IMG/VR virus record: IMGVR_UViG_3300048591_000348
Coordinates: 15,920 to 79,919 of that record
Length of the DNA: 64,000 nt
Origin: a virus
Direction: 5' to 3' (one strand)
The position numbers and the translations under genes were made by a program. Positions 1,815 to 63,100 of this stretch are shown here, one piece after another. Position 1 is the stretch's first letter. Every line of letters starts with the position of its first letter. The notes below the pieces were generated by a model. It ran no database searches. It was not told the DNA's origin and worked only from the letters and a program-made list of their open reading frames with translations.

Positions 1815-3453
1815 TTGCCACCCACATCACCCTGAAATTGTTGCTTATTATTGAGGTCTGGATAGTGAATCCGCTTGTGGTTTGCGAGTAAATATCCACG
1901 CGACTACTCACTGATGCGTCTCCATTGCAAACTACAGGGACACCTTTCGTCGGAAACGCGACGGGATACGAAACTGATGCGCGCCCGCTGCCGTCTGTCG
2001 TCACCAGGCTGTTGCCGAATTGAAGTATGTGGCCATTCGGGAACGAGGACCACTCAGTCGCTCCGGAGCCACTACGATTGCCCTTATAATAATAATCAAG
2101 CTCACCTTTTGACATATAGCATAGGAACCACGCCCCCCATGAACCGCTTTGGCGAATGCGACGCCACAGCTTAGTGTCTGAGGACGACGCCGTACTGAAT
2201 TGGTGTAGCGTCTGCGTCACCCAGTCGGGATGTTGCGCCTCGACAGATCCAATCCACCAGCCCGCCCCAGGGCCATTGGTGGCATCCTCTGCTGTGTACC
2301 AGCCGGTCGATGTCGCGCTATTCCAATCCGTGATAGTAGGGTCGAACACACCCAAGTTCCTGCGCGCTAGAGCGATGTCATCCACGTCCGATAGATTGTT
2401 CGCGCCCAGCATGTCGCCGGCTCCGGCCGGGGCGGCCCAAGTCCCGTCGGACTTAAGATACTTGTTCGCAGCTGCATCTCCAGCGGTCGGAGCGGGGACC
2501 AACCCTTTAGTGCCCCCCGAACCGGTATCGCCTACGAACGCACTGAGGAGTGCCGTTTGCGCGCCAGCATTGGCAGCACCGACGATGCTCCTTCCCGCCG
2601 CCGTGAAATCTGCGGTCGAGAACGTGTCAGAACCTGTCGCATAGATGACCTTGTCCGCGGCCGTCGATACGCCAGCAAGAGCCGTCAGCGTGGCATCGAT
2701 GGGCTGGAATGCAGCGTTGGCCGCAGCTATTGAATAGAAGTCGGTGCCTGCTTCGAGATCGAGCAGCGTCCGCATAGCAGCGTAGTTCGCCGCCGTGACT
2801 AGAGAGACACCATTTGCGGATGCGCCTGCCAGTGAGCTTAATGTCGAACTGTAAGCCTGGACTACGCTGCCGATCCCGGATGCCATCACGGCGCCGGCAG
2901 CGGCGACGTTGGTAGCATCAGTGACGTCGGCACCGTCTTCAATGTTGAGGAGCCCCCGAATAGCTGCATAGTTGGCAGCAGCGACGAGAGACTTTCCGTT
3001 CTCGCTCGGATTGACTGCCGCCCATTCATCGAGATTGGCCGCGTAGGCTTGAACGTCCGCGCCGATCTCGATGCCGAGGTTGTCCCTTGCCTGTGACGCG
3101 TCCTGCACGTCGGATAAGTTGTTAATCGCGGCGAGGCCGCCAAGGGGGATCGCCAGCGGTCCCGATACGTAATTGCTCCCATCAAAGTAGATGACGTCGT
3201 GCTGATGCGGCGTTTGGATTTGAGAGATGTCGCGAAGATAGGGATGCAATCTCCCTAGCGGCAGCGTGCCGGCCGAAAGATCCGATGCCGATCCTGACGA
3301 GGCGACGCTTGCGAGCTGAGACGCGATGTAATCCCGGATCGCTTCCCGCGAGAATGCACTCGGCCGCACGTCGCTCGCATGCTTCCCGCCAACCAGCCAC
3401 GCTCCAGCCGGGAACACATCCTGCTGGACTTCATCGCTTAGTTCGATGCCCAC
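1804..3453 (-). CDS. tail fibre protein
   Basis: NNLSDV..ARxNLG repeats, GLVPAPTAGD motif, pyocin-knob-like DWNSATSTGWY...WGAW, gp53-like C-terminus (PNGHILQFG...YPVAFP). Confidence 0.85.
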   Translation of the reverse strand: MGIELSDEVQQDVFPAGAWLVGGKHASDVRPSAFSREAIRDYIASQLASVASSGSASDLSAGTLPLGRLHPYLRDISQIQTPHQHDVIYFDGSNYVSGPLAIPLGGLAAINNLSDVQDASQARDNLGIEIGADVQAYAANLDEWAAVNPSENGKSLVAAANYAAIRGLLNIEDGADVTDATNVAAAGAVMASGIGSVVQAYSSTLSSLAGASANGVSLVTAANYAAMRTLLDLEAGTDFYSIAAANAAFQPIDATLTALAGVSTAADKVIYATGSDTFSTADFTAAGRSIVGAANAGAQTALLSAFVGDTGSGGTKGLVPAPTAGDAAANKYLKSDGTWAAPAGAGDMLGANNLSDVDDIALARRNLGVFDPTITDWNSATSTGWYTAEDATNGPGAGWWIGSVEAQHPDWVTQTLHQFSTASSSDTKLWRRIRQSGSWGAWFLCYMSKGELDYYYKGNRSGSGATEWSSFPNGHILQFGNSLVTTDGSGRASVSYPVAFPTKGVPVVCNGDASVSSRVDIYSQTTSGFTIQTSIISNNFRVMWVANGY

Positions 3454-9253: not shown

Positions 9254-9628
9254 ATGGCTGATAGCAACCATACCATCGTTCAATCCATATCCGAATCTGT
9301 AATCAGGGCAGACGCCACGCTCGCGGCAATAAAACAACTGCCATTCGTCCGAGACGCGACGCGTGCCGAGCGCGCAGCCGGAATGCCGGGGCGCAAATTC
9401 TGGGCCGTCGCATCGACTGGGGACTACGCTGCCGATCGCCGTGCCGGTCAGCAGTTTGCTCGCGAGGCATTGGCATTCATGGTCGCTCACGACTTCCCGG
9501 CGCTGCTCGGATGGATCGTGCGGGACATGTGCGCCGAGGATGATGATCGTCACCTGGGCGCAGTCGAGTGCGGCTTCCTGTCCGCCATCGCCCGCCAGGC
9601 CATCGGCGGCGCGCACGCACTTGATTAA
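9254..9628 (+). CDS. hypothetical protein, similar to the C-terminal domain of 34793..35569
   Basis: GGAG SD; FWAV..TGDY..D...G...LLGWIVRDM...VECGF motif. Confidence 0.65.
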   Translation: MADSNHTIVQSISESVIRADATLAAIKQLPFVRDATRAERAAGMPGRKFWAVASTGDYAADRRAGQQFAREALAFMVAHDFPALLGWIVRDMCAEDDDRHLGAVECGFLSAIARQAIGGAHALD

Positions 9629-9655
9629 TATTTTGCGCCTCAATATATGGAGCGC

Positions 9656-9868
9656 ATGGCGAACCAGAACGCGAACAACAATCCTCGGGGGCCAGGCCGC
9701 CCGAGGATTGCGCCGGCAGATGAGTCGGCCCAAATCAACCTGAGACTCACAAAGACCCAGCTCGATTGGCTGTCAGACGAGTCTCGGCGGCAGGGGCAGT
9801 CGGGGCGGACGGCGGTCATTCGTCGCCTAATCGACGACGCGATGGCTACCTACGGCCGGAAGAGATAG
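9656..9868 (+). CDS. ribbon-helix-helix (CopG-like) regulator
   Basis: GPGRP...INLRLT..QLDWL...RTAVIRRLIDDAM. Confidence 0.7.
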   Translation: MANQNANNNPRGPGRPRIAPADESAQINLRLTKTQLDWLSDESRRQGQSGRTAVIRRLIDDAMATYGRKR

Positions 9869-9904
9869 ACAAAAAAGCGCAATTATCACGATTTTGTGAT
9901 CAAT

Positions 9905-9949
9905 GTTCTTTTGTTGTTCTGTTTTGGGGCTCATAAACTATGGTATAAT
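9905..9949 (+). promoter_or_regulatory. promoter with extended -10 and upstream alphaproteobacterial LexA box
   Basis: GTTC-TTTTGTT-GTTC at 9905-9919; TGGTATAAT at 9941-9949. Confidence 0.6.
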
Positions 9950-10106
9950 GATTCTCAAGACGCGACGATCGGGATGCCCAAGCGCTGGACGCAAGGACTT
10001 CTGACCGACGAGCGCAGGGAAACGGCTCGCATTGTTCCTGGGCACCTCCCTAATTGAGACCGATCCCTGTGACGTGGGGCTACCTACGGCACAGGGAGTG
10101 AGAGAC

Positions 10107-10388
10107 ATGGCACGACGCAAAGCTGTGCAGTCTGGCAACGCGGTGACGACGCAATCGGCATCGTGGAAAAGCCTTCTCGGGGCCGTCGCTTTCGGGCGCG
10201 GGTTCAAGGAGGTGCACGCCGGCCTGCCCTTCAATTCTGACGCCATCGAGTCGCGATGGCATTGGCACTACGAGCGCGGGCGCCTCTTCGGTGTGGTCTA
10301 CAAGGGCCAACTCAAGGAGGGGCGCACGGTTCTCCGGGCGGCAATCTACGCCGCTCAGATCGCCTACCGCGACAAGGTGTTCACCTAA
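10107..10388 (+). CDS. hypothetical protein
   Basis: AGGGAG SD; QWxYERGR-like motif (WHYERGRLFG). Confidence 0.7.
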   Translation: MARRKAVQSGNAVTTQSASWKSLLGAVAFGRGFKEVHAGLPFNSDAIESRWHWHYERGRLFGVVYKGQLKEGRTVLRAAIYAAQIAYRDKVFT

Positions 10389-10473
10389 TGCCGAGGCCCT
10401 TCGGGGCCTCACCTCACAGGGATCGGTTGACCATCGCCTTCTGCGTGAGGCTTCACGCTAGGAGGACTGGGAA

Positions 10474-10791
10474 ATGAACGTCATCGACGTAACGATCAAT
10501 GATCGTGAAATTCCGGCCGGCAAGGTCTTGATCGCCAAGAGCAAGCCCGAGGGCGAGCCTTTCGCCAGAGAGCACGAGCTGGACAGCAAGATCGGCTGGA
10601 AGAACTCGGATCTGGGGCGCCCTCGGCAAGTTCGGCTGGTAGGCCGGGTTGCTGGGTGGAACCTCGCCGGGTCGATGCTGCGGTGGGACAATGGCGCTTA
10701 CGGCGTCATCTGGGACATCGACGGATCGAGGCACGGTCGCTGGTACAAGAAGTTCGAGGAAGCGGTCGAGCACTTCAATCGCATCCCTTGA
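10474..10791 (+). CDS. hypothetical protein
   Basis: AGGAGG SD, 105 aa. Confidence 0.75.
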   Translation: MNVIDVTINDREIPAGKVLIAKSKPEGEPFAREHELDSKIGWKNSDLGRPRQVRLVGRVAGWNLAGSMLRWDNGAYGVIWDIDGSRHGRWYKKFEEAVEHFNRIP

Positions 10792-10880
10792 ACCTCCGAG
10801 GCCCATACGGGCCTCACCCCGAAGGCGATGAATATCCCATCATTCCATGAGGGCATCCTGCCCTTCGGAGGGAATGACAA

Positions 10881-11228
10881 ATGCAAACATTGTCTTTGAG
10901 GCTGACGCATTCCTACGTCGGGACATGGCAGCACCTGGACAAGTGGGAGGGTCTGGGCTCGATCGATGAGATCGGCTCAAGAGAACTCCCGCTGAACGAG
11001 GAACAGGAGAACGATCACTGCGAGCCGAAAGGCCGCGAAGTGTTCTGCCTCGTCACTTCGGAAGCCGAGGATGCGAAGATCATCTGCGCGCTTCACGACA
11101 CCTACACCCAATGGGGTTGCTCGCACGAATACGACTGCTGCGGCTGCCGGAGCTACACGGCTCAGGACGTCAAGCGGGTGACGGGCAATCTCTGGCGGGT
11201 CGAGGTCTGGTCCTCTCGGAACTACTAA
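10881..11228 (+). CDS. hypothetical Cys-rich protein
   Basis: GGAGG SD; CSHEYDCCGC motif. Confidence 0.75.
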   Translation: MQTLSLRLTHSYVGTWQHLDKWEGLGSIDEIGSRELPLNEEQENDHCEPKGREVFCLVTSEAEDAKIICALHDTYTQWGCSHEYDCCGCRSYTAQDVKRVTGNLWRVEVWSSRNY

Positions 11229-11316
11229 CCTCCAAGGCACCCGGCAACGGGTGTCCTCATGGGATGATGGGAAATTCCCCGAGACCTTCGCTGGCAGTGA
11301 GCCGACGCGGAGGAAG

Positions 11317-11526
11317 ATGATGACCAGGGACAAGGAATTGAACCTGATCTGGAAACACACGCACCCGGACTTTCGCGGGAAGATCGACGGCAAGCGATAC
11401 GTCCTATGCTGGATTGAAGGCAGCGGGACATGCAGCGTGCCACTCGAAAGCCTTCCCGAGAAAGAGCACCAATCAAAGTTGGGCTACGCTCAACGACGGG
11501 AGGCGCGGGGCGAGCGCGGATACTGA
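11317..11526 (+). CDS. hypothetical protein
   Basis: GGAGG SD; IWKHTHPDFRG motif. Confidence 0.7.
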   Translation: MMTRDKELNLIWKHTHPDFRGKIDGKRYVLCWIEGSGTCSVPLESLPEKEHQSKLGYAQRREARGERGY

Positions 11527-11616
11527 TTATGGGTTGCCCGGGAGACCGGGCTGCCTGCCAAGGTCTCGGGAAACTGTGCCTCCTGATGGGCGATCCTGCC
11601 CTACCGGGAGAGCGAC

Positions 11617-11730
11617 ATGGCCAAGTTTCACTTCATCGCCGTTCCGCTGATCAAGATCGAGCGCGGCCCCTACTGGGGACGCGGCAGCCCGGACGTTGTT
11701 GCCGTCCCTGCGAACAAACTGCAACCCTGA
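11617..11730 (+). CDS. small hypothetical protein (37 aa)
   Basis: GGGAG SD; MAKFHFIAVPLIKIERGPYW...; below the ORF-track cutoff. Confidence 0.5.
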   Translation: MAKFHFIAVPLIKIERGPYWGRGSPDVVAVPANKLQP

Positions 11731-11840
11731 GCCTACTGGCCCGCCCCGAGAAATCGGCAAGCGGGGCTGAGGTGGTAGAGACAGAGGCGCGGCGGCTAAA
11801 CGTCACCCGCAATGACGACTAGCACAGGGAGACAGATGAT

Positions 11841-12149
11841 ATGGCCGGCAAGCCCTCAATCCCCGCGGGCGTGCATCGTCGCATCCGGCAACTCCACTCT
11901 CGCGGCATGACGCAGAGCGCCATTGCCGAGGCCGTCGGATGCTCAAGATATACCGTGTGCAAGGCGATCAATCCGGATTTCGCGGAGCAAGAGCGGCAAC
12001 GTCACCGCCGCATGGGCCGCGATCGCTATGTCGCCCGGAAAGACGATCCCGACTATATCTCTTATCAGAGTGCCTGGAACACCACGCCAGAGCGGCTGCG
12101 CAAAGTGCGCGAGGGCATGCGGCGACTCCGGAAATCCAGACAGGCATGA
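11841..12149 (+). CDS. HTH DNA-binding protein
   Basis: GMTQSAIAEAVGCSRYTV. Confidence 0.7.
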   Translation: MAGKPSIPAGVHRRIRQLHSRGMTQSAIAEAVGCSRYTVCKAINPDFAEQERQRHRRMGRDRYVARKDDPDYISYQSAWNTTPERLRKVREGMRRLRKSRQA

Positions 12150-12290
12150 GCACGCCCATCAGGGCAATCCTCGCCTCCCAGCCGAAAGGCCGCGGGAGGC
12201 GAAGCGCGTAGAAGACCATGAAACTAACAGAGGCCGGTTGCTGGCTAGAGCGACCGGCCTCCTTGTGCGCGTCGAGACGGAGCACTCAGG

Positions 12291-12461
12291 ATGCACCCAT
12301 ATCTCTACACGCTGGAAGTATTCCGTAACGGAGAGTGGATCGTTGTCAAGAGCGGGCTTTCCGCAACTCTCGCTGCCTTTGGATCAGCACTAGCGATGCT
12401 CAAAGAGCCGGGAGAACTGTGGAGAGCTGTTAGAGAGGACGGCGACGTTTTCTACCCGTGA
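12291..12461 (+). CDS. small hypothetical protein (56 aa)
   Basis: GGAG SD; MHPYLYTLEVFRNGEW... Confidence 0.55.
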   Translation: MHPYLYTLEVFRNGEWIVVKSGLSATLAAFGSALAMLKEPGELWRAVREDGDVFYP

Positions 12462-12540
12462 CCAATGCGTGAGCTTGTAAGGAATGCTTACAGGTTCGTC
12501 CCGCGCGCCCTGCCAGCGACAACAGCAGGAGAAAGCGCCC

Positions 12541-12675
12541 ATGCCCGACATCACGATCAAACGGTATGACGGATGGTGGTATTGCCTCGTGAATGGCCAA
12601 CGCGAACGCTTTGGCTATTCGACGGTCGCAGGCGCCATAGATCGGTACTACGCGATCGTAGAAGGCTGGATCTGA
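12541..12675 (+). CDS. small hypothetical protein (44 aa)
   Basis: AGGAG SD; MPDITIKRYDGWWY... Confidence 0.55.
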   Translation: MPDITIKRYDGWWYCLVNGQRERFGYSTVAGAIDRYYAIVEGWI

Positions 12676-12874
12676 CCGGCTGGGCGAGGCTTTCGGGCCT
12701 CACCTCGCTCGCAGGGCGCGCGGGATTTTTTGCAAAGGCCGAAACCATTGCCATCCGGCTGTGGTCGCGGAGTAATTCTCCGCCTGAAGATGGCCACTTT
12801 AGATCGACACCGGCCCACCTCGGGCCTCGGTGCGGCAAACACCGAGAGGTGGGCCAGAGTCAAGACTGATCACA

Positions 12875-13948
12875 ATGCACACATCTAGCACACGATGGCG
12901 AATCTCGCCACTGGGGTGGATCGCGCTATCCCTCGGGATCGCGGCCGAATCCGCCTCAAACGCGCTCCGAGCCTACGGGCTTGGTGCGTTCCTCGATCGC
13001 TTCGCGGTACACATCCAGGGGCACACGGTCTCGCTTGCGGGGTCCGTCCTAGTGCTGGCCGCCATCGCGATCTCACTCGCCCAGGCCAGAGCGGCCTGGG
13101 TCGCGCTCTCCCCAGGGCGCCCCATCAGTCAGCGTATCGTAGCGGGCTTCGCAGCCGCACTACTCGTCTCGATCTCGATCACGGCCCTTGCTTCTCATGT
13201 TCTCGATGCGCAACGAGCCAAGGGCGGTAGAGAGACAGCGGCCAGTCAATCGTACAGTAGAGCGAAGGCTGCGCACGACAAAGTCGTCGCCGAAATGCAA
13301 TCGCTTGGCGAGACGCGTCCAGTATCCGTGATCCAGGCCGAGATTGCCTCGGCCCAGATCGACATGGTTGTGTGGCGTCGATCGGCCCAATGCAGTGACA
13401 TCAGTCGCGAGGACACAAAAAAACTCTGCGGGCCAATCCTCACGCTTTACAAGGAGCGTGGCGCCGCCGCACGCAAGCTCGAGCTTGAACCCGAAGTCGC
13501 GCATCTGCGGGAACAACTCTCAAGCATGACGCCGCCCGTCGAAGCCAAGACGGCTTCGGAGGAAGCGATGTCCATGTGGTGGGCGTGGATCATGGGACTC
13601 GGCGTGGTGTATCTCGCCACATTCGGATCCGTGATTTACGCCAACGAAGTAACAGTCACAGAGCGGGAGCTTCCAAACCTTCCGCCACCGCCCTCAGCAA
13701 AGATCGTGGAAGACGACAGCCCGCCATCCGGCGGCGAATGCCGTCCGAAGACGAGAGAGGAAGCACTCGCCGACCTGCGGCAGCTTCTGAAGGCGGGACA
13801 CAGCCCGCCGTCTCAGGAGTGGCTTAGGGCGCGCTGGCAGGTGGGCTCAAAAGGCACGGTCTCAAAATGGCTTCGCCTTTGGGAGGACACTGCTCAGATG
13901 CCGGGGAGCCGGATGGTCGAAGGGCGCTGCAAGACCGTAGTCGCGTAA
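12875..13948 (+). CDS. membrane protein with coiled coil and C-terminal HTH
   Basis: Three N-terminal hydrophobic helices, a fourth near the C-terminus, then SQEWLRARWQVGSKGTVSKWL. Confidence 0.7.
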   Translation: MHTSSTRWRISPLGWIALSLGIAAESASNALRAYGLGAFLDRFAVHIQGHTVSLAGSVLVLAAIAISLAQARAAWVALSPGRPISQRIVAGFAAALLVSISITALASHVLDAQRAKGGRETAASQSYSRAKAAHDKVVAEMQSLGETRPVSVIQAEIASAQIDMVVWRRSAQCSDISREDTKKLCGPILTLYKERGAAARKLELEPEVAHLREQLSSMTPPVEAKTASEEAMSMWWAWIMGLGVVYLATFGSVIYANEVTVTERELPNLPPPPSAKIVEDDSPPSGGECRPKTREEALADLRQLLKAGHSPPSQEWLRARWQVGSKGTVSKWLRLWEDTAQMPGSRMVEGRCKTVVA

Positions 13949-15780: not shown

Positions 15781-16037
15781 CCCGCCCCCCCCTGCTCCGA
15801 AAGAGCTGCTTCTAATCCGATTAGAACCTCTTCCAGCGCCTGCCGCGAAACGCCCACTTCGCATCCGTCCATATCCAACTGGCGCTGGTTATGCTTGAGA
15901 TTGTCGATTGCGCCTTTGTAAATACCATCGATGTAAGCGAGGCGAGCCTCCAGGCGTTCGATGGCCATGCCGCGGCGATCCATCTCAGCCACGATCTCGT
16001 CGATGCTGGATTGGCGGGAAATGTTGATAATGCTCAT
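15777..16037 (-). CDS. hypothetical coiled-coil protein
   Basis: QLDMDGCEVGVSRQAL motif; SD present. Confidence 0.55.
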   Translation of the reverse strand: MSIINISRQSSIDEIVAEMDRRGMAIERLEARLAYIDGIYKGAIDNLKHNQRQLDMDGCEVGVSRQALEEVLIGLEAALSEQGGAG

Positions 16038-51165: not shown

Positions 51166-54100
51166 TTATGACTTCTTCTTCTGGGCCTTGCTGTATACCT
51201 CCATGGCCCGGAGGATAACCGCGTTCTCCTTCTCTTGGACCTCGTCGAGCTTGGCCTTCTTCTCCTTGTTCGGTAGCGACCGATCAAGTTGGACCTGGGC
51301 GCGGATCTTCGAGAACTGAGAGAGTGACTTCTGTGCGCCTTTCATGGCGCCGTAGGCTTCCAGCTCTGCGCGGTATTCACGGCGCGCTCGCATGGCATCC
51401 GCCCCGTTCCCGGCCTTCGTCAACTGTTGCACCTCGTAAGCCGCGGCGTCGACCTCGCCCCATTTCTCGTAGAACTCGCCGCGACGCGAGGTTTGCGTCT
51501 GCTTGCCGTAGAGGCGCCGGATGATCGGCGTCTTCTCCGGTACGAACTCCTCGCCATCGAGCGCCCTCGCGGCAGTGCTGGTCACATTCAGCAAGAACTT
51601 GCCACTGCCACCGCCGATGAACTGAGCATAGTGCTCAAGAACTTCCGGGCTGATATCGATGAGCCCGGAACGGGCCGGATTGCCGCCGCTTGCCGAATTG
51701 AGAAGCCTTGCCGTTGTGATGAAGGCCGGATGCACCGATGCGAAGTAGGATTCGCTGTCCGGCTTCCGCTTGTCGTACTTGATGGGGGTAATCGGCCCGC
51801 CGTACCAAGTCTTGTTCTCCGCCACCTGGACGATCGGGTCGAGCATCGTCGGGCTCACCATCTGCAAGAACGACGTGGTCGGCGACGTGCCCAGCGGGTT
51901 GATCGAGTCCATGAGCGCCGACATGATGCCGGCCGCGGCCTTGGCCGGCGTCGCCTTGCCATGCCCAGCCGCGGTTCGGAGGAGCTCGCCGACCTTCTGC
52001 CCCGCCACGTAGGGCGCGTTGTAGCCGTAGGGCATCGGGATCATGAAGTAATCCTTCCGCCCCGGCAGCATGAAGATCATGTTCCGCTCTTTGATCCACG
52101 GCTTGATCTTGTCGTAAGCGTTCTCCCCGTCGTCGTCGTCGCCGGCAATCAAATAATTCAGCATTTCCATCGCGACGCCGCCGGCAGCAAGAGTGTAGAC
52201 AACGCGGCGGACCGCCTTCGACCGCGCGAACGCCTGGAACATGCGGATCGAACCTTGGACCGAGGCGTTGAAGAACATGTAGGCCGAATTGATCACCGGC
52301 CCCAATTCACCCTTGCGGTTGAAGTTTACGGTCAGCTCACGCGCCACGGAGGCGGCCCGATCTTTCGAGATGCCAGCTTTGCGCATCGCGACGTAGGTCG
52401 AGAGCCGAACGCCGTTCTCGACCGACGTATTCACGTCCTCGACGTAGCGGACGGCCTGGCGGAGCGCGCGTCGGGTCTTGCCCTCCGTGAGCAATCCGTT
52501 GATCTGGCCCTTGATGCGCTCGACGTCGTTGAACTCCATGAAGGAGACTTTGCCGCCCGCCTGCCGGAACTCTTCGAAATACTGGGCGAACTCACTCGAT
52601 CCGTCGCCGCGGAGCGCATTGTAGATGCCGCGTATCGACTTGAGTGACAGAGCCTCGGCCAGCATCTTCTTGCGAGCGCCGTCGGGCAGGTCCTGAATAT
52701 CCTTGGAGTTGATCAGTGCCGTCTGCACATCACGGAAGAAGTTGCCGACAACGAACTCTGGGTTCCAACTCGTCAGAAGTTGCGCATAAAAGCGCGTCAG
52801 CTTCATCATGCTCCGAACGATGATGCCATTCATCTCGCTCGAGCCGACGCCTTTCAGCGCCCGCGCCAGATTCGGATTGTGAAGCTGAATGTAGCGCTGC
52901 TTGCCGCCGACCTTGACGCCGACGATCGATGGGTCGTGGTGCGAGAACTGGGGCGGGACGAATACGGTCTCGACAAGTCCCGTCGTCTCGTTCAGGCGCC
53001 GACTGTACTCGCCGCGGTAAACCTGCCAGACATCCGGGTCGGGGTGAGTCTCGACCAATCGAAGCAGGGCCTTGTTGACCCTGTTTTTCTCGGACCGGAC
53101 GATGGCCTGTTGTGCCTGCAGGAGAACATAGGCAAGGGGATTGTCCGACTTGGATCGGCGGCCCAGCGCCCGATAAGCTTCGGGTCCGCGGATGTTGTAT
53201 CCTTTCCCGACCCGAGGGAACGCCGATTCATCACCCTCCGCCTCGAACCCACGAAGCGGTACGTAATTCTGATAATCGCTCGACCAAGCGTCATAGACCT
53301 CGCGAGAGATCAGCCCGGAAGCGAGCAGCGTATCCCGGCTGTCCTTGTTGATCCGATCGACCATTGCGGCAGCGTCAGCAAACGCTTTGGCTTTTGGTCC
53401 GCTGGAAACTCGGTCCATGATTGCCTGGGCATCCGCGTCGGTCATGCCGGAGCCGGCATCGTTGCCCGGATCTATGGTGCGGATGTAAGCGTTCCGCTCA
53501 CCGGCGTGCCGGGCGTAAAGATACTCGCCAAGCTGGTCTCCATCGATCTCGTTCTTGCGCAGATGCTCGACAAGCGGCTCGATGTGCTTGCTCTGAAGAT
53601 CCGCCATCCTCTCGCCGGCGCGCCCATGGAACAGGGATTCGGCCGTGTAGACATCGAGCGGAAGGGGCAGAGCAACGCCGGTCTGGCGCTCGATCGCCTC
53701 CTGCTGCCGGCGCATCATCAAGAACCTGTCCTGAATGCGAACGCGCCATTGATCGGAGATCGGGGCCATGCGGCGCATGGTGGCCGCGACACGGCGCCCG
53801 AGGAAGGTTCCCGGAGACGTCGCGCTCGGGAAGAACGAGGCCATAGAGTCCTGTCGATCGCCACGGCCGTCTGCCAGCGTCGCTTGACCCTCTGCCGCCT
53901 GGCCAATGCCACGCTTTGCGGCAGCGGCGCGCATCTCGCCCGTGCGGGCACGCTCGAAGATGGACTCGATGCTATCGAAGCCATGGCCACGCAAGAGGTT
54001 CTGCGTGCTGCGGACGATCCGGGCGAGCTTGTTCCAGAGCCGTCGAATGCCGATGTGGATCGGGCCAGCTTCGACGCCTTCGCCCTGCATGGCTAGGAAT

Positions 54101-57100
54101 CGCTGGAAGGCAATGGCCCGGATCTCCCAATCGGGCAGCCTCCCGGCCAATTCCTCCGTCATGCCCGGCACAGTCATCGCCATGCGTCGCGCCCGCGCCA
54201 TGTCGGCGGGGGACTGGAGGAGCTTCATCTCCTGCGGCGAGGCGAGGACCGTCTCGACATGATGGTAGGCTTCATGGCCTGCGGTGGAGACGAGATCACG
54301 GCCCTGCACGCCAAGCGACAATTCGATCACGGCTCGAGCGCTTAGTGTCGGCGGCGTGTACTTGCCGGCGATCTCAGCCGGAACTCCTGCCAGTGCGGAC
54401 CTCTGATCCTCCCGCATGCCCGCATCGGATAGATTGTCGGAGAAGGAAACCCGAACCGCGTCCGGCCCCGTCATTCTCGTAATCAGGGCAACCGCATCGG
54501 CCATCTGGCGCTCGAGAGTGCCACGCTTGGCCTCGGCGGCTGGCGTCAAGCCACCCGGCAAGGCGAATTGGCCGCGCGCCGCAGAATTTTGGCGCATGTC
54601 CTCTTGAATTTTCGTTAGCTGTTTGCTAACTAGGTTGATTGAGGGATCCCGAACCCTTTGTGCTAACTGGCGCACTGCTGCCAGCACGTGCCCAAAGGCG
54701 GCGGGATCCTTCTTCCATTTTAGAGCCGCGATGCCGCCGCCATGACGCAAAGCCTTCTCAAGGCGCGTGGGGATGGCATCTTTGCGGGCCACGAACGCGG
54801 TCTTAACCTCGTAGTCGCCCCGCACATTCTTGTCGAGACGCATGCCGACGGTGCGAACTTCCCCGTTGGGCATCTGGCGCAACAGGTTCCACTGCTCCCC
54901 CACGTCGTACTTGATCGCGTAAGAACCATTGGCAATCACATCCTCTATGAAGGCTTTGACCTTCTCAGGGGTTGCGAGATCCGGGTGCGCTCCGCCGTCG
55001 ATGTTGTCTTTAGCCGCACGCTTCCGCGTGATGTGGTCCAGGTCGACGACAATCTTGCCCCGATCAATGCCGAGCCATGACGATAGCGCCTCCGTGACCG
55101 GGATTGGCGCATGGATGGCGTTCTGCGGCGCCTTGGGGCGAAGACCCATGGTGCTTGCAATTCTCGCCCTGGCGGCCGCTTGCTGGTCGGGAGAAAGCGT
55201 CAGCTTCGGCATTGCCGAGAACATCGGCTGGCCTTCAGTCTTAACCGCCCCCTTGCGGGAATACACACCGTTCCATATATCCATGAGAACGTCGCGGACT
55301 GGGTCGATCTCCATGGGAAGAAGCTCGCCATGCGAGGCAAGCTCGACAAAGTGAGTCACAGCCTCTTGATCCATGATCTCGGCAAAATCCGCCCGATCAT
55401 GGTATAATTGTTCATAAGCTTCGCGAACGGCGCCCTCGTTGGCAGACTTCCAATTCGGATCGCCGATTGCGCGGAGGTAGGTAGACAATTCGGAGTCCAA
55501 CACTCGGAGAGACTTTGCATGGGCAAGAAGCCGACCCCAAACGTCGTCCGTGAGGCGACCGCTGCTGCGGAGATGATGGACAACCTCGTGCCACAGCTCA
55601 CCGTGGAGGGATTTAACAGACTCATCCGAGAAGCTAAGGCGGGGGAAGACCAGAACATCCCGCCCGCCGGGGAGGTAGCGCCCCGGAGCGACGAAAGCTC
55701 TGACCTCTAAAAACTGCTTCTCTGTCAGAGACATGCGGACTTCTGAGCCGTCCGCTGTCTCGACGACCAAGGATACCGTCGCGGTGCCGTCCTCACGCTT
55801 CGCACCACGCGAAACGCTTTTCAAGACGGCAACGTCGGCAGTCTTCGGCACCATGTGAGACACTTCGGCCAGTGCCGCGTGCACGTTGGACCGCACGTCG
55901 CTGGGAACAGTGACCGTCCGCCCCATCTTAAGGAACGGAATGACCTTCTCGGCGGTCAATGCGGCATCAATTTTAGGCCCGCCGATGATTGCCTGCGCCT
56001 GATCCTGTGCCGTGTCCGTCTCGAAGGCAGCGCCGATCTTCTTCATCTCGTCGACGGCGGCAGCGAATTTCGCACGATCCAAGCCTTCGGCCAGCATCGT
56101 ATTGCCACGCGACTCGAACTCGGTCGGGGCAATCGCGAACCGAACGGCCTTGTCCGTGTAATACTTGCCAGCCTTGAACTTGGCCTTCGCCATCTGGATG
56201 TAGTAGCCGACCCGGTTCTTGCCGAGGACAAGTTCGCCATCCCGGCCGTTGACATCGACGTCGGACACCTTGTCGAGGAATTGGGCGACCTGCTCTCCCG
56301 TCTGGAACCGGATCGCGCGGGTGTTCATGAACTTGTCGAGTTCAAACCCGCGTTCCATCAGGACGCCGGGCCTAACCTCTCCGGTATTCGTGGTAAAATT
56401 GACGATGCGTCCCTTGCCCTTGGTCTGGTCGTAGCCACCGAGGATGTTGCCGGTGACGATGTAGCGCGTCTCGCGGCCTTCCTTGCGGGCATCCTCGAAC
56501 GCGCGGATCAGCATGTCCGGGAAGGTGCTCGACCGGGCGATCTGAGCGCCCTTCTCCTCGTCCCCCTTGACGACCCCAGGCGGGAATAGCTTCGACATGG
56601 GGAACTCGAACTGGCGAGCCGAGTCGGGGACTGCTATCTTCACCATCCACGCGGAAAGCGCCGTGATGCTCTTCGCCTTGCCGGAGCGCTCGGTCGACAT
56701 GACTATGCCGTCAAGAGTGCCGCTTGGCATGGTCAGCGAAACCCGCGCGCCAGGGTAGGCAACGCTCATCGTCTGTTGCCAGCGTGCCAGCGTGGCCTGG
56801 GCCTTGGCCCGGACGCTCTGCTGGCTCTCGGCCTTGGTCTGCGCAAGTTCGTCATTGAGTTGACGACGCGCGAGATCCTGTATCCGGCGGCTTTCGGAGG
56901 CAAGCCAATCCCGACCCTTACGCTCCAGCTGGTCGAGAACGGATTGGTCGCTACCTTCCGGCTTCGTGGTTTTGAGAGATTCCGCCACCTTGTCGGCAAT
57001 TTCAGAGATGGGCAGCGCGCGGCCCTGTGCCTTGACGGATGCCTTTTCCATGCGCACGGCGTCAAGGAACGGGCTATCCCCGGTCTTAGGCTTCAGTTCG

Positions 57101-60100
57101 ACACTCTCCAGAGTTTCGGCTTGGAGATCGAGCATCTTGGCTTCGAGGGGATTTTCTCCGAGCGCATCCAACTCAGCGATCTCGCGGGCGTAATTTTGCT
57201 GGACCGTATCCAGCATCTCGCGCTGCTGGTCGATCTCCAGAAGCACGAGCTTGCCGGTGGCGTTCTTGACGAGGTCTTCATGGTTGACCCCATCGTAAGG
57301 TTCGCCGAGCGCGACGTTGATCTCAGGGTTCTCCCAGAGATATTCCGCCATGACCTTGTCGCCGACCTCGTTCATGAAGTCTGCGGACTCGGCCGTGAAG
57401 GCAGACCCTCGCGCGCCGGTCGTATTGGCGTTGAGGGATGCCATTTTCTTCATCAGAACGGCGGTCGGGCGCACCTCTGCCGGGATGCCTGCGGCGAGCT
57501 GCGTATATGCCGGAAGAACAACCTGTCCGGTGCGGTGGACACGACCGAGCATCTGCATGTGGGTGTCGATATTGCCCTCGGCCTGGGCCAGGATCATGCG
57601 CCGCTTGCGCTTGTCCTTGAAGTCGGACTTGGCGTGCATGGAAACGCCGGTCGAGCCCGATCGGTTGAGGATGACGGCATCCAGCGTGCCGCCGTTGAAC
57701 TTGGAGATGGTGACGCGCTTGCCGCCAGACCCGGCCTCGGCCTTGGGCCGCAGAACCAGTTTAGGCCGCTTGGCACCGTAGTCGATCATGGTTTGCCGGC
57801 CGGTGATCTCGCTGACCGTATATCCGGCTTTGGTTATGCGGCTGCGAATCCAGTCGATCGGTGAGACCGGCATGGCCTCGTAGTTGCCCTGCTCGATCTG
57901 GCTCTCGACTGTCTGGTAAGCCTGCTGGAGGCTCGCGGGAAGGCGCTCGACCGGGATCTGGTAGTGCTCGGACTTATCGCTGCCCGGCCGCTTGTAGGTG
58001 ATGCGCAGCGTCCGCGACAGGTAGCGCTTCAACATGGCGCCGAAGTCGATGTCGATCACGTCACCGACCGTGAACCCAGCGTCCCTGTAGAAACTCTCGT
58101 TGGTATTGGCGAGTGTGATGACGGGCTTCTCGTTGGCCTTCAACGCTGCGATGGCGCGATCCGCCGCCACGTCAGCCTTGATGGCAAGAAGCATCTGGCT
58201 GACGATATTGTGCATGATCGATGAAAAGCTCGTCGACGACGCCGACCCTTCGCCGATGCCACTGTCGTTCGACTTGGACCCGGCCCCAATCTCCGCGAGG
58301 ATTTCCTCGACGATGTCGTTGCGTGCGTCCTTGACGGCGATGTCGAACTTGAAGATCGACTGCACGGCGCCAACGAACTCATTGTAGGCATTCTCATCGA
58401 CGGTGGCCGGCTCGACCGCGTACTCGATACCCTCGAACGAGCGCTCGCGACGAAGGTACTGGCCGGATTCGGCCAGCATGGACGCCACGATCTGCTGCAT
58501 CGGAACGCCGCCCTTCGTGATCAGGGCGGGCAAGTCTTTGATGTCCTCGACGGCCTTGCCCATGTCGGTGCGGGCATAAAGGTCCATGACGTTGGGGCGC
58601 TTGGCGTAGGTCGCCGACATGAATACGACGCCCTTGGCCATTTGCGTCAATTCGCGGACGAACTGTGCCCGCCCGCCTTCCGCCGCCTTCTCGGCACGCT
58701 TGTCATCGACAACGCCTTGTCCGGCCGCGTTATGGACTTCGTCGAACACCATGATCGCGCGCGGCGCGATGCTCTTGAGCACGGAGCGGCGGCGCGGGAT
58801 CTTGTCGCCGATCGACTGCATTTGGCTGTAGGTCGTGAACACGACGTCGGCGACAGGCTCGCCGGAAAGCAACTTGTCGTAGTCCTTATCCTTCTTGTCG
58901 CTGGTGCCACCGGACAAGAACTTGCCGCGACGTGCCGGGCGCTTCTCGCCTGCCGCATCCGCTGCGTCGGCCTCTGCCTTCCACTCGACGGCCGCCTCGT
59001 CCATGGGGATCGTCTTGCCGACGTCGGTCGTCAGCATGGTTACGTCGCGGCCCAGCATCTCAGGGATGCCGATGTCGCGCATGTCGCGGTACATATCGCC
59101 GTAAAGGTCCATCTTCTCGGTGACGAGCACCGGGACAAGGCCCTTCTTCATGGCGTAGCGAAGGAGGCCGGCGCCGACTCTGCCCTTGCCGATCCCGGTC
59201 TGGTCGCCCACAATGAGCGCGCCGCCACGCTCGATATTGTCGATGGCGGCTGCAATGGCGTCGATCTGCTCAGCGGAGAACGGACGCTGCTTCTCACCCT
59301 TGGCGTCGATGAAGTACATTCCCTCGGCGTCGGCCTCGTAGCCGAGTTCGCTGCGTACGAACTCATCCACCTCGCCGCGACGCATGGCGACGCGCTCCAT
59401 GGCGTTCCGCGAGGAATCCGCCATGGCGGCCGGGACGAGAGTGTCGACGGACTTGGCCCCAGAGACAGGCTCGTAGCGAGCCTGCGTGGCGCCGTCAGCG
59501 ATCTTTACTCGCTCACGCTTGGGAGCACGGTCTCGATCAACTCCTCGGCCGTCTCCACGTCCTGCGGCCGGAACATCACCTTGACCGTCTGCATCGCTTC
59601 GACCGCCACTGGATTGTCCGCCAGCAGTATCCGGGCGAACTCCATCGGGCTCTGCCCCGGCTTCGGGCGCTCGTTCGTCAGCCCCAGTTCCGACAACCGC
59701 ATCGCCGCGTATCTCATCGACGGGAGCGGGTCTTTCGACTGGCTCCACAGGACGGCGAGCCGGTCTGTCACCTTTTCGACCATCTGCGGTGTCATCCGGG
59801 ATTTTCTCCGCGATCTCGTCCCAGGTCTTGAGTAGCGCCGGGACGCCCAGGTTGGTGCCGGGCAGTGGACGCTCCGACTTGCCCCGCCCTTCGATGACGA
59901 TCACGTCGACCGGCCACGAGGCGCCCTGTTTGGTATAGAGGTCGCCCGAAACCGTGAAATGATCGGTTACATTGTAGCGATCATACAGGACTCGGTAGAA
60001 GTTGTCCTTGGTCTTGCCGGTCTTAGCGTCCCGCATATTGAGACCGCGATAGGACTGCATGCGCTCCTTGGCATCCTCGCCCTTCGGCCCGCCGATAATC

Positions 60101-63100
60101 AGGACGGCCTTGCCGTCATCGGCCATCGCGTCGAGCGCATTCAGAGAGACGGCATGATCGATCTTCGTCGTGGTGAGATCGCCAAGCGTAAACAGCTTCG
60201 ACTTGCCGCCTTCCTTCACCGCGCCGAACGGCGGATTCATGATGACGGTATCCGCGGACTTGTCGCGAACGATGCCCGGAACGCTCCCGTCGAGCCCCTT
60301 GGTGTTGAAGCCGAGGGACGAGAGCGCGAGCTGGCGAGATTGGTCGATCTCGTTGGCGACAACGTTCTGCGATCTCGGCTTGGCCTCGATCAGGAGCATG
60401 CCGTTGCCCGCCGTGGGCTCGAAGACCGAGTCGGCTTCCGTCACGCCGGCAAGGCGCGAGGCGACGTAGGCCAGCGGCGCCGGGGTCGAATATGCCTGAT
60501 TGGCGACGGAGGTGCCCGTGCGCGAGGCAAGGTTCGGCTGGCGGCCGTAAAGATCGACGAGAGCCTTAAAGACGGAACCCGGCGACTTGCCGCTCTCTAC
60601 GATCTGGCGCGCGGCCCGGACAACGGCAGTTTCGACCGCCTCATCAACCTGCTTGTTGGTTGCCTCGGCCGGGAGGATGCCCGCCTCTTTGACGAATTTG
60701 CGAGCCTCGACAATCGTTTTGAAGCCTTCGCCCATAAGGCGAGAAACGAGGGCATCTTTGCTACCCTCGCTCTTTGCCTCGGTCTGCGCCTTTGGTGACG
60801 CCTCGTCGGCGGCCGGCTTCTTTGCAGGTTTAGCTTCCCGGTCTGGCGGAGCGTTCGCGACAGACTCATCGGCAATCGCGACGGTTTCCTTGGCTTCCGC
60901 GTCAGATTTGGCTTCCGGCGTGGCGGATGCCTCGGCCGGTCCTGCCGACTTCGCCATGTCAACGAGGTCGGTCTGCTTCCCGGCATCTGGATTGAACAGC
61001 GGGCCTGCTTCGTCGCTGGCGCTCTTGACCTTCTGCTCCTTCGCCTTCGTCTCAGCGGCAATCTTCTCGCTGGTGGTTGCCTCGGGAACGAGGGACGTCT
61101 GGCCGGATTCAGCCTTGGGCGCGACCGGACGCGCCAGTTTCTCAAGACGGTCCGCGAGTTCCGCCACCGTGAGATCGGTGGGCCACCACTGGTTCTGGCC
61201 ACCACTGTACTGGTTCTCGCGCGTCGACTTGCGGGCCATCAGTGAAATGCCGCCCTTCGGTCCTGAGAGCGCATCTCCGATGTTGACGTAAATGCCGTTG
61301 CCGTCCTTGTCGATCATGCTGAGCGAAACATCGCCAGACACGGCCGGGCCAGCAGGGTTGACGTTCACGGCACGCCCAGGCTTCGGTTTTTTGCCTCGCG
61401 TGTCGGGGTACGGCTCGAAACCGCGTTCCTTGAGCACCTTCGAGATCTTCGTCAGATAGTCACGCGCATCAGACAGGAACCCACGCTTCAAGGAGCCGTC
61501 GTGCTCCTCGTTGCCGATCTTCTGGTTGGCGTAGCCGTCAATGATGATGCCGGAATAGTCCCTGAGCCGATCCGGGCCACGGTCCTTCGGACCAGCGAGC
61601 GATGGCGCCTTGCCCTTGTTCTCGTTGGCCTTTTCGGCGGCCTTAAGCTTCTCGCTCGTGGTGGCTTCGGGAACAAGGGACGTCTGGCCGGTCGGCTCCG
61701 TTGTGACGACGGCCGGTTGCTTCCCATCGTCCTTCAACGGCTTCGCTGTCTCCGCCTCGTCATCGTACCGGGCCTTGAGGTCGGCGACGATTGCAATCTT
61801 CTGCTCGTCCGTCAGCCGCGTCCAAGGCAGTCGCCAGCCCTTACCTTCCGCATATTCGCGAATGATCTTCAGCGGATCTCCGCCCGGCATGGCGGCGAGT
61901 TTCGCGTCGGCAAAGGTCGGGACGTTGGGCGGAAGCTCCCGCGCCGTGACAATCGTGTCATCGGAATCAGAAGGCCCCGTTTCCGGGGCCTGGGCTACTT
62001 CTTCGGTGCCTGCTTTGACTTCCTCTGGTCGAGACCTTCCAGCATCTTCGCCCGGTTCAGGAGCTTCTTCTTGCGCGACGGGTCTTTCTCCGTCGTCGCG
62101 TCCGCTCGCATCCTCTTCGCGGTCGACAGTCCCTTCGCGCTCATTCTCGTAAGCCTCGATTGCGATGCGCTCCAGCGCATCCCCCACGTCCATATACTCG
62201 GTCTCGACCAATTCGACGAGGCGGTTTTCCTCGGCATCGGTGAGATCGTAAGAAACGCCAAGATCATGCGTCAGTTGCTCGACCTCGGAGATGATTTCCC
62301 GACGGCTCTGGTCCGCGATCTCCTTCTTCGACTTCGGGCGCTCGACCGTCTCGCCGTACTTGCCGATCCGCTCGCCGGCAACGATGCGGCTGACGAGATC
62401 GTAGAGATCCTGGAGCGATGTATCGATCGTCTGGTTCGGCCCGGAACGGTCCTGGATATAGTTCTCGCCTTCGAGAAGGCGCAGCATGTCGTCCGGGGAG
62501 ACGCCGCTCCTGTTGAACAGTCCAGGGATGCGCGCGCCGTCGGCAATCTGACGAAGATCTGAGTCCGGCCGAATCCCACCGGCATTGCGGATGAAGGCGA
62601 GGGCTGTGGCAGGAGATTGGGGGGCGCTCTTCCTCTTCGGCGCCGCCGGCTGCCTGGCGAGGTCGCCTAACGGTTTGGTCTTCTTGCCATCGCGCGCCCA
62701 AGCGCGGAACTGTGGCACCGGCATCTCGGTGACGGCACCGATGCGCTGTTTGCCCCTGCCATCGGAGAATCCAGCCTCGTATGTGGCAACTGCCGTCTCG
62801 CGATCCGGGAACCCGAGCAATGCCTTGTGCTCGTCGAAGCGGCCAGTGCCAGCATCCACCTGATCAACGACCCACACGCGATCCGAAGCCGGATCATCGC
62901 CGATATAGACGTCGAGGTGATCGCCATCTTTACCGAGGGTCTTTTTGAAGTACCCATACGCAGCAGGCATCGTGACCTGCCACTCGGCGCCGTCGGCCGA
63001 TTTGCCGCTGCGGATTGATCCCTTCGGATTCTCGATCGTGATGTCGAGTCCGTGCAGCTTTACGTGCCCTTTCGAATAATTACCGGCGGTCTTCTGCGCT

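Follow-up and report, generated by a model that had tools for sequence, protein, structure and literature searches.

Why are the small accessory genes of a phage operon flanked by sequences that are complementary to each other across the gene? This question was raised by an earlier note on a window of 64,000 nucleotides (positions 15,920 to 79,919 of the IMG/VR record IMGVR_UViG_3300048591_000348, an uncultured temperate phage), which described six arm pairs between 10059 and 12726, each enclosing one gene or, in one case, two genes. The note interpreted them as an rRNA-operon-like processing system, in which RNase III-type cuts release monocistronic, end-paired and possibly circularisable mRNAs, or as a modular cassette architecture for gene swapping. 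Here, the arm pairs were compared with shuffled sequences and with related loci. The described pairs are indeed present, although one of the six is at chance level on its own, whereas the proposed interpretation is only partly supported. Literature searches identified no description of chained gene-enclosing stems in phage mRNA.

Arm pairs around the genes of the operon

To test whether the arm pairs stand out from the surrounding sequence, inverted repeats were searched between 9500 and 13500. The five longest were 10830-58/11249-77, 10421-51/10811-41, 10059-80/10406-27, 11275-97/11551-73 and 12499-519/12705-25, corresponding to five of the six pairs (P1-P4 and P6). Base-by-base counts agreed with those of the note, with 20 Watson-Crick (WC) pairs and 1 G-U of 22 for P1, 18 of 20 for P2, 25 WC and 3 G-U of 29 for P3, 18 of 20 without gaps for P4 and 20 of 21 for P6. 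In an ungapped scan of all 64 kb with an arm separation of 100-800 nt, these were 5 of the 9 best stems, and the rest of the 79.9-kb genome contained no comparable cluster. In 150 dinucleotide shuffles of 9950-12750, stems scoring ≥14 occurred 0.08 times per shuffle, compared to 5 observed. The best shuffle score averaged 12.4 and peaked at 16.5, whereas the observed scores were 23.75, 18.75, 18.25, 14.5 and 14.25. When all 5' arms were paired with all 3' arms, the duplex matrix was diagonal, with -21 to -48 kcal/mol for cognate and -6 to -22 kcal/mol for non-cognate pairs, showing that each 5' arm pairs specifically with its own 3' arm. RNAduplex predictions on 130-nt flanks were uninformative, since long gapped duplexes form between any GC-rich flanks. 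As described in the note, 0-11 nt separate a 3' arm from the next 5' arm. The sixth pair, P5, is a perfect 11-bp match, but with a score of 11 it is not above chance in an unrestricted scan, as shuffles gave about one stem ≥12, and only its position speaks for it. The minimum-energy fold of the whole transcript kept only P3 and P6, although every unit except P5 closed its arms when folded alone.

All features of the operon are located on the + strand. An extended -10 promoter-like element (TGnTATAAT) at 9941-9949 heads the operon, but a consensus scan found no full -35/-10 pair. The 5' arm of P1 (10059-10080) contains an anti-Shine-Dalgarno (anti-SD) stretch that can pair locally with 10091-10097, and is followed by g1 (10107-10388, 93 aa, no family match, GC3 of 0.76), a C(UUCG)G tetraloop hairpin after the stop codon (10393-10410), whose 3' strand overlaps the 3' arm by 5 nt, and the 3' arm (10406-10427; duplex -40.1 kcal/mol). 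The P2 arms (10432-10451 and 10811-10830; -30.5 kcal/mol) enclose g2 (10474-10791, 105 aa), a conserved protein family of unknown function with 17 homologues, and a 7-bp hairpin after its stop codon (10798-10815). A CCUCC at 10793-10797 can pair with the SD of g2. The P3 arms (10830-10858 and 11249-11277; -47.7 kcal/mol) enclose g3 (10881-11228, 115 aa, phrog_20892) and a GNRA (GCAA) tetraloop hairpin (11238-11253). The P4 arms (11278-11297 and 11551-11570; -33.0 kcal/mol) enclose g4 (11317-11526, 69 aa) and a GNRA (GAGA) tetraloop hairpin (11536-11551). The weak P5 arms (11582-11592 and 12153-12163) enclose 11617-12149, containing the doubtful g5 (11617-11730, 37 aa) and g6 (11841-12149, 102 aa, HTH_23), and here the local SD-sequestering hairpin is the preferred fold. 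g7 (12291-12461, 56 aa) is not enclosed by arms. Finally, the P6 arms (12499-12519 and 12705-12725; -44.6 kcal/mol) enclose g8 (12541-12675, 44 aa) and a UUCG-loop hairpin (12686-12701), and the 3' arm is directly followed by a run of six T up to 12731, which is probably the end of the operon.

Related loci and accessibility of the Shine-Dalgarno sequence

To determine whether the stems are conserved, three related metagenomic contigs, designated L042, L043 and L044, were compared with the operon. They have the same back-to-back layout with different arm sequences, with four chained stems in L043 and three in L044. Around the shared gene g2, the 5' arm covaries with its 3' arm in L043 and L044. 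Of 21 pairs, 7 changed on both sides and still pair. Of all cells in the alignment, 91.8% pair, compared to 34-44% when the partner was slid by 1-3 columns, and 1 of 500 shuffles reached the observed values. Homology with L043 at g2 starts and ends about 6 nt inside the arms. The 5' arm of P4 is conserved in L042, L043 and a contig from another run (X6). L042 and L043 are near-identical, but between the same arms and UTRs L042 carries a homologue of g4 and L043 an unrelated 60-aa gene. The independent X6 contig shows the same replacement, and thus the stems belong to a slot in which genes are swapped. Both the picture of a gene in an RNA loop and the modular-cassette idea of the note therefore have comparative support. 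Homologues of g7 and g8 were also found in L043, but that of g8 lacks a 3' arm.

The strand on which the arms act was then examined. The note had argued that G-U positions favour pairing in the mRNA. This does not hold, since 9 G-U and 7 A-C positions were counted over 11 independent stems. Sense-strand RNA is instead supported by the C(UUCG)G and GNRA tetraloop hairpins after the stop codons and by the fixed order of 5' arm, SD, gene, stop codon, hairpin and 3' arm. The SD always lies 14-30 nt downstream of the 5' arm, outside the helix. Of 12 strong stems, 11 are 20-33 bp long. Arm duplexes give -30 to -51 kcal/mol and enclose loops of 185-390 nt.

An alternative pairing of each 5' arm with its own SD, which the note omitted, was supported statistically. 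In the computed folds, the nascent 5' parts form SD-sequestering hairpins. The SD opening energy averaged about 7 kcal/mol with a free 5' arm and about 2.6 kcal/mol with the arm masked. It exceeded the shuffled-arm mean in 10 of 12 units, and a Fisher combination of the per-unit fractions gave about 1e-4. In the closed unit the SD opened at 0.6-2.3 kcal/mol in 8 of 12 units, whereas in the other 4 a CCUCC just after the stop codon kept it paired (4.1-6.2 kcal/mol). Closure therefore does not always open the SD.

Possible roles of the stems

Combining these results, it is considered somewhat more likely than not that the arms act in the sense-strand mRNA of one polycistronic accessory-gene operon, in which each cistron is a self-contained RNA unit. 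Once transcribed, the 3' arm would pair with the 5' arm into a helix of 20-33 bp, which ties the two ends of the cistron together and abuts the next helix. Two consequences are inferred. A helix of about two turns is the natural substrate of host RNase III, as far as its substrate rules can be carried over to this host, and cutting would release single-gene messages whose ends stay paired and whose 3' end is capped by the tetraloop hairpin, as in T7 early mRNA processing but with the leader-trailer geometry of rRNA operons. Furthermore, before the 3' arm exists, or after it has been degraded, the 5' arm would fold back on the SD, so that initiation would be licensed only on complete messages, and a cut through the 5' arm would make the release of the SD permanent. 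Because every unit folds independently of its neighbours, genes could be exchanged within a slot without disturbing expression. The analysis itself demonstrates the pairing, its specificity, its conservation by compensatory change, the gene replacement inside conserved arms and the SD switch as a computed property, while RNase III cutting is inferred from the helix lengths of 20-33 bp, and end-paired or circularised products, message stabilisation and licensing of translation in vivo are inferred from sequence alone, no RNA run containing the stretch having been found. RNase III is encoded by Bosea and by another Hyphomicrobiales genome that carry g2 homologues, but no RNase III gene was found in the phage. 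This counts against the model, as do the lack of a boxA, the whole-transcript fold with only 2 of the 6 helices, the four units in which the SD stays paired after closure, the weak P5, g7 without arms and the restriction of the comparison to three related lineages. RNase III cuts intramolecular mRNA duplexes whose strands lie hundreds of nt apart (PMC11780869).

Other explanations were weighed against this model. The arms might be a translational licensing or integrity switch only, without endonucleolytic processing, resembling the ordered folding pathways of hok mRNA or the MS2 maturation gene. The SD calculations and the nascent hairpins agree with this, but it is thought unlikely, since a switch needs only about 10 bp, helices of the observed length are unlikely to escape RNase III, the SD stays paired after closure in four units and the tetraloop hairpins are not explained. 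Still less likely is that the helices only insulate and stabilise, making each cistron an independent folding domain with protected ends and structured, Rho-resistant spacers, without programmed cutting or an SD switch. The orthogonal arms, the swapping of genes in slots and the fully structured spacers would fit, but neither the recurrent anti-SD content of the 5' arms nor the two-turn helix length is explained.

A role at the DNA level, with inverted repeats marking cassette boundaries for recombination, inversion or cruciform formation and incidental RNA pairing, is suggested by the exact replacement of a coding sequence between conserved arms, by the boundaries of homology at g2 and by the equal frequency of G-U and A-C positions. 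However, every pair is unique, so that no single recombinase or transposase site is shared, arms of different cassettes have no homology to recombine on, and inverted orientation favours inversion, not exchange. The UUCG/GNRA loops on the sense strand, the SD placement and the anti-SD content have no DNA-level meaning, and no integrase or transposase was identified among the operon proteins. This reading is therefore regarded as improbable. A chance or compositional artefact of a GC-rich region is refuted for P1-P4 and P6 by the shuffles, the covariation and the same architecture with other arm sequences in relatives, and only P5 is within the range of the shuffles.

More tentatively, phages of many lineages may package swappable accessory genes in closed-loop mRNA slots, in which co-evolving UTR arms would hand each cistron to RNase III for excision, protect its ends and license ribosome entry only on intact messages. 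This would be a bacterial counterpart of end-to-end mRNA surveillance and a natural expression insulator that makes gene exchange context-free. If the helices work as inferred, they are a compact natural design for expressing interchangeable genes from one transcript. Each gene would carry processing, stability and translation control in its two UTR arms and would fold independently of its neighbours, which would help explain how phage accessory regions tolerate rapid gene turnover, would extend rRNA-style long-range processing to protein-coding messages and would offer orthogonal, sequence-programmable insulator parts for synthetic operons. The SD switch would imply that bacteria-infecting viruses check message completeness before translating.

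Comparison with described systems and other loci

In bacterial rrn operons, leader-trailer helices flanking 16S and 23S rRNA are cut by RNase III (PMC10250234). There, as here, sequences hundreds of nt apart pair into a helix of about 20-25 bp and consecutive units of one transcript are each enclosed, and such a helix was observed for the Bosea rrn leader and trailer. The analogy drawn in the note is incomplete, however, since the enclosed units are small protein genes with their own SD, no Rfam family matched, the 5' arm doubles as an anti-SD, and a boxA-like motif read in the Bosea rrn had no match in the operon leader on the + strand. The RNase III sites between phage T7 early genes likewise place a double-stranded element in every spacer of a polycistronic message, and in both cases, as at long-range RNase III targets in bacterial mRNAs (PMC11780869), cutting is expected to give single-gene messages with a protective 3' hairpin and can activate translation. 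T7 sites are local hairpins with an internal loop between genes, whereas here the strands of each helix lie on opposite sides of a gene and the helices are chained back to back.

In hok/Sok systems (PMC9841398, PMC3851714), the 5' and 3' ends of the message pair over its whole length, fbi-tac 5'-3' closure follows metastable nascent hairpins that hide the translation start until the 3' end is made, and the pairing is kept by covariation, as here, where the hiding of the start is a computed property only. The closed form of hok is inactive and is opened by 3' trimming, whereas closure here mostly frees the SD in the calculations, there is no antisense RNA or toxin, and the units form an array within one operon. 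PeSL promoter/stem-loop cassettes of T4-type phages (PMC2839356, PMC4122927) also occur in variable accessory-gene regions where close relatives differ by replacement of single genes at conserved non-coding boundaries, but PeSLs are one repeated local motif that provides homology for recombination, while the arms described here are unique, act at long range and contain no promoter. Integron attC sites are local imperfect palindromes with shared core sites at the 3' end of each cassette. Here no shared core was found, the arms flank the gene, and the operon proteins contain no integrase domain.

Searches for closer relatives with g1, g2 and the downstream 372-aa gene gave nothing close in IMG/VR, and cultured phages contained no DNA or g2 protein match. 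Distant g2 homologues at ≤58% amino acid identity, including that in a Bosea massiliensis genome, have no arms, and 400 genomes of the Bosea order added no match beyond the Bosea genome itself. In the leader, the stem at 9971-10050 folds no better than shuffles (z 0.09). A LexA-box-like GTTC-N7-GTTC motif is present at 9905-9919, but the pattern occurs 3 times in the window compared to about 2 expected and is not conserved in L042 and L043, leaving SOS control unproven. g3 is found in many unrelated phages without flanking arms, and the cultured phages RHph_TM16 and JWF show only isolated repeats near their g3 homologues, not chains. In the loci with g3 homologues designated L002-L041, the apparent chained long-range repeats are mostly one palindromic motif repeated in each spacer, probably operator-like, which is a different phenomenon.

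Gene-enclosing stems in the accessory operon

The window (bases 15920-79919) is part of a 79.9-kb IMG/VR virus record with direct terminal repeats and 60% G+C. The operon under study runs on the + strand, starting at an extended -10-like element at 9941-9949 and ending at a run of T at 12726-12731, and it holds about eight small genes (g1-g8). Of these, g2 belongs to a conserved family of unknown function, g3 is phrog_20892 and g6 has an HTH_23 domain, whereas the others match no family. Homologs of g2 were identified in a Bosea massiliensis genome and a Hyphomicrobiales MAG, so the host is probably a member of the Hyphomicrobiales. Just upstream of the -10 element, at 9905-9919, a GTTC-N7-GTTC motif with the form of the alphaproteobacterial LexA box could be identified. 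However, this motif occurs 3 times in the window against about 2 expected, and it is not conserved in the related contigs L042 and L043 (see below).

In the earlier note it was proposed that the small genes are enclosed by their own pairs of complementary arms, and this observation is confirmed here. Five of the proposed arm pairs are the five longest inverted repeats found in 9500-13500, and base-by-base counts of the paired positions agreed with those of the note. When the whole window was scanned for ungapped stems with arms 100-800 nt apart, these five were among the nine best stems of 64 kb. In 150 dinucleotide-preserving shuffles of 9950-12750, stems scoring 14 or more appeared 0.08 times per shuffle, against 5 observed. 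The remaining 16 kb of the genome holds no comparable cluster.

The arms are not copies of one element. When every 5' arm was paired with every 3' arm, cognate duplexes gave -21 to -48 kcal/mol and non-cognate ones -6 to -22 kcal/mol. The sixth pair, P5 (11582-92/12153-63, 11 perfect bp around g5 and g6), is within the range of the shuffles, and only its position, right after the previous 3' arm and right after the g6 stop codon, speaks for it. Folding of the 2.8-kb transcript as a whole kept only P3 and P6, the stems around g3 and g8, but when each unit was folded alone all closed their arms except P5. The 141-nt spacer between g6 and g7 (12150-12290) folds far better than shuffles (-72.6 kcal/mol, z -5.75). 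It has two strong local hairpins inside a larger stem, but no arms and no T run, and might be a small RNA or a processing or stability element.

Conservation of the stems and exchange of genes

A first set of related loci, collected with g3, was misleading. In these other phages carrying g3 homologs (L026 3039-4978, L030 2564-5521, L018 4377-5580 and L022/L025), each spacer holds a copy of one palindrome, for example a 9-bp half-site, 6 nt and then the inverted half-site. These palindromes look like repeated operators or regulated promoters in front of every small gene and mimic long-range inverted repeats in scans, and the g3 homologs there have no arms.

Useful relatives were obtained with g2, namely the contigs L042 and L043 (93% aa identity, two assemblies) and L044 (72%). 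L043 has four back-to-back stems of 20-33 bp, and L044 has three of 21-23 bp on a 1.2-kb contig. Each of these stems has the same internal order as in the window: 5' arm, Shine-Dalgarno (SD), gene, stop codon, hairpin, 3' arm. Around g2 the three lineages have different arm sequences that still pair. Of 21 pairs, 7 changed on both sides, and 91.8% of cells pair, against 34-44% when the partner was slid by one to three columns. Only 1 of 500 column shuffles reached the observed values. Homologs of g2 at 58% identity or less have no arms. Therefore, the architecture belongs to this operon lineage and not to the gene.

L042 and L043 are nearly identical through three units. In the fourth unit both carry the arms of the window's P4 (the stem around g4), its SD region and its hairpin at 88-95% identity, but L042 has a g4 homolog there, while L043 has an unrelated 60-aa gene. 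The replaced segment is essentially the coding sequence. The same replacement was observed in a contig from another sequencing run, which joins 11298 to 11545 with 223 other nucleotides in between. At the position of g3, L043 has a shorter, different gene with its own arms. At g2, homology between the window and L043 begins and ends about 6 nt inside the arms, and the outer six pairs differ on both sides and remain complementary. The stems thus define slots in which genes are exchanged while pairing is maintained. In the alignment of this region (window 10438-10824, L043 1620-2003), the 3' half of g2 is identical, while the 5' third differs at about 10% of positions, which suggests a recent recombination break inside the gene. 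The operon of L043 also contains a 166-aa ORF (2903-3403) with no counterpart in the window. On visual inspection it carries an HNH-like motif, so it may be a homing-endonuclease-type insertion.

Probable pairing in the sense strand and its relation to the SD

The earlier note argued from G-U positions that the pairing occurs in the mRNA. This argument fails, since over 11 independent stems 9 G-U and 7 A-C positions were counted. However, other features point to sense-strand RNA. The hairpins between stop codon and 3' arm have UUCG loops, several of them closed by C-G, or GNRA loops on the coding strand, the SD always lies 14-30 nt downstream of the 5' arm and outside the helix, and the arms have a strand-specific relation to the SD. 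A role at the DNA level is further opposed by the uniqueness of the arm pairs, which cannot be sites for one recombinase, and no integrase or transposase lies in the operon. In about 9 of 11 units (window 10393-10427, 10798-10830, 11238-11277 and equivalents in L043 and L044) the 3' strand of the hairpin after the stop codon overlaps the inner 4-7 nt of the 3' arm. The inner end of the long helix and the hairpin are therefore alternatives, in a branch-migration-like arrangement, and either form gives about 21-24 stacked bp.

Each 5' arm contains a pyrimidine stretch that can pair locally with its own SD region, and nascent 5' parts are predicted to fold that way. To quantify this, the energy needed to open the SD was calculated. 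With the 5' arm free it is 4.1-10.2 kcal/mol, with a mean of about 7, and with the arm masked, as when it is paired to the 3' arm, the mean is about 2.6 kcal/mol. The opening energy exceeded the mean of 100 shuffled-arm controls in 10 of 12 units, and a Fisher combination of the per-unit fractions gave about 1e-4. In complete units with the coding part masked, the SD opened at 0.6-2.3 kcal/mol in 8 of 12. In the other four (P2, which encloses g2, P3, and units A and B of L043) a CCUCC just after the stop codon keeps it partly paired. Closure therefore usually frees the SD in these calculations, but not always.

Inferred processing and comparison with known systems

The interpretation of the earlier note, in which RNase III-type cuts release monocistronic end-paired messages or the arms form a modular cassette architecture for gene swapping, is partly supported. 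We consider it shown that selection maintains a specific helix across each cistron, whereas cutting of this helix by host RNase III and all steps in vivo that would follow from it are inferred, and no RNA run contains the sequence. The inference rests on the observation that eleven of 12 strong helices are 20-33 bp, about two helical turns, which is the length class RNase III needs and more than a switch needs. RNase III is present in the two genomes that carry g2 homologs, while the phage has none of its own, and the enzyme is documented to cut intramolecular mRNA duplexes whose strands lie hundreds of nt apart (PMC11780869). Cuts in the helices would give single-gene messages with a short paired stub joining both ends and a tetraloop hairpin at the 3' end, and a cut through the 5' arm would also remove part of the anti-SD. 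The SD switch may act before, or instead of, cutting. Independent folding of each unit would make gene replacement harmless to neighboring units.

The geometry is that of rRNA leader-trailer helices, which could be read in the Bosea rrn operon. However, no boxA is present and the enclosed units are protein genes. The expected outcome resembles T7 early mRNA processing, but T7 sites are local hairpins. The ordered folding resembles that of hok mRNA (PMC9841398), but with the opposite sign in most units, and the gene turnover resembles PeSL-mediated shuffling (PMC2839356), but the arms are not a shared motif. A literature search found no description of chained gene-enclosing stems in phage messages. 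It is concluded that this is a real, selected RNA architecture, which varies known long-range processing and closure helices and whose biochemical consequences are inferred.

Long-range repeats were also found outside this operon. The second-best long-range stem of the window (2290-2319/2687-2716, score 19.5) lies inside the 549-aa ORF on the minus strand. In Rhizobium phage RHph_TM16 (locus L063), a perfect 17-bp inverted repeat (8877-8893/9746-9762) brackets gene EVB27_082 and its long upstream spacer, and in Achromobacter phage JWF (locus L064, 595-1016) two interleaved repeats of 17-19 bp lie in a non-coding kilobase. Finally, on the minus strand of the window an open frame of more than 4277 aa (51166-63999) runs off the end, and this may encode a giant virion-associated protein like those of Bcep22-like phages.
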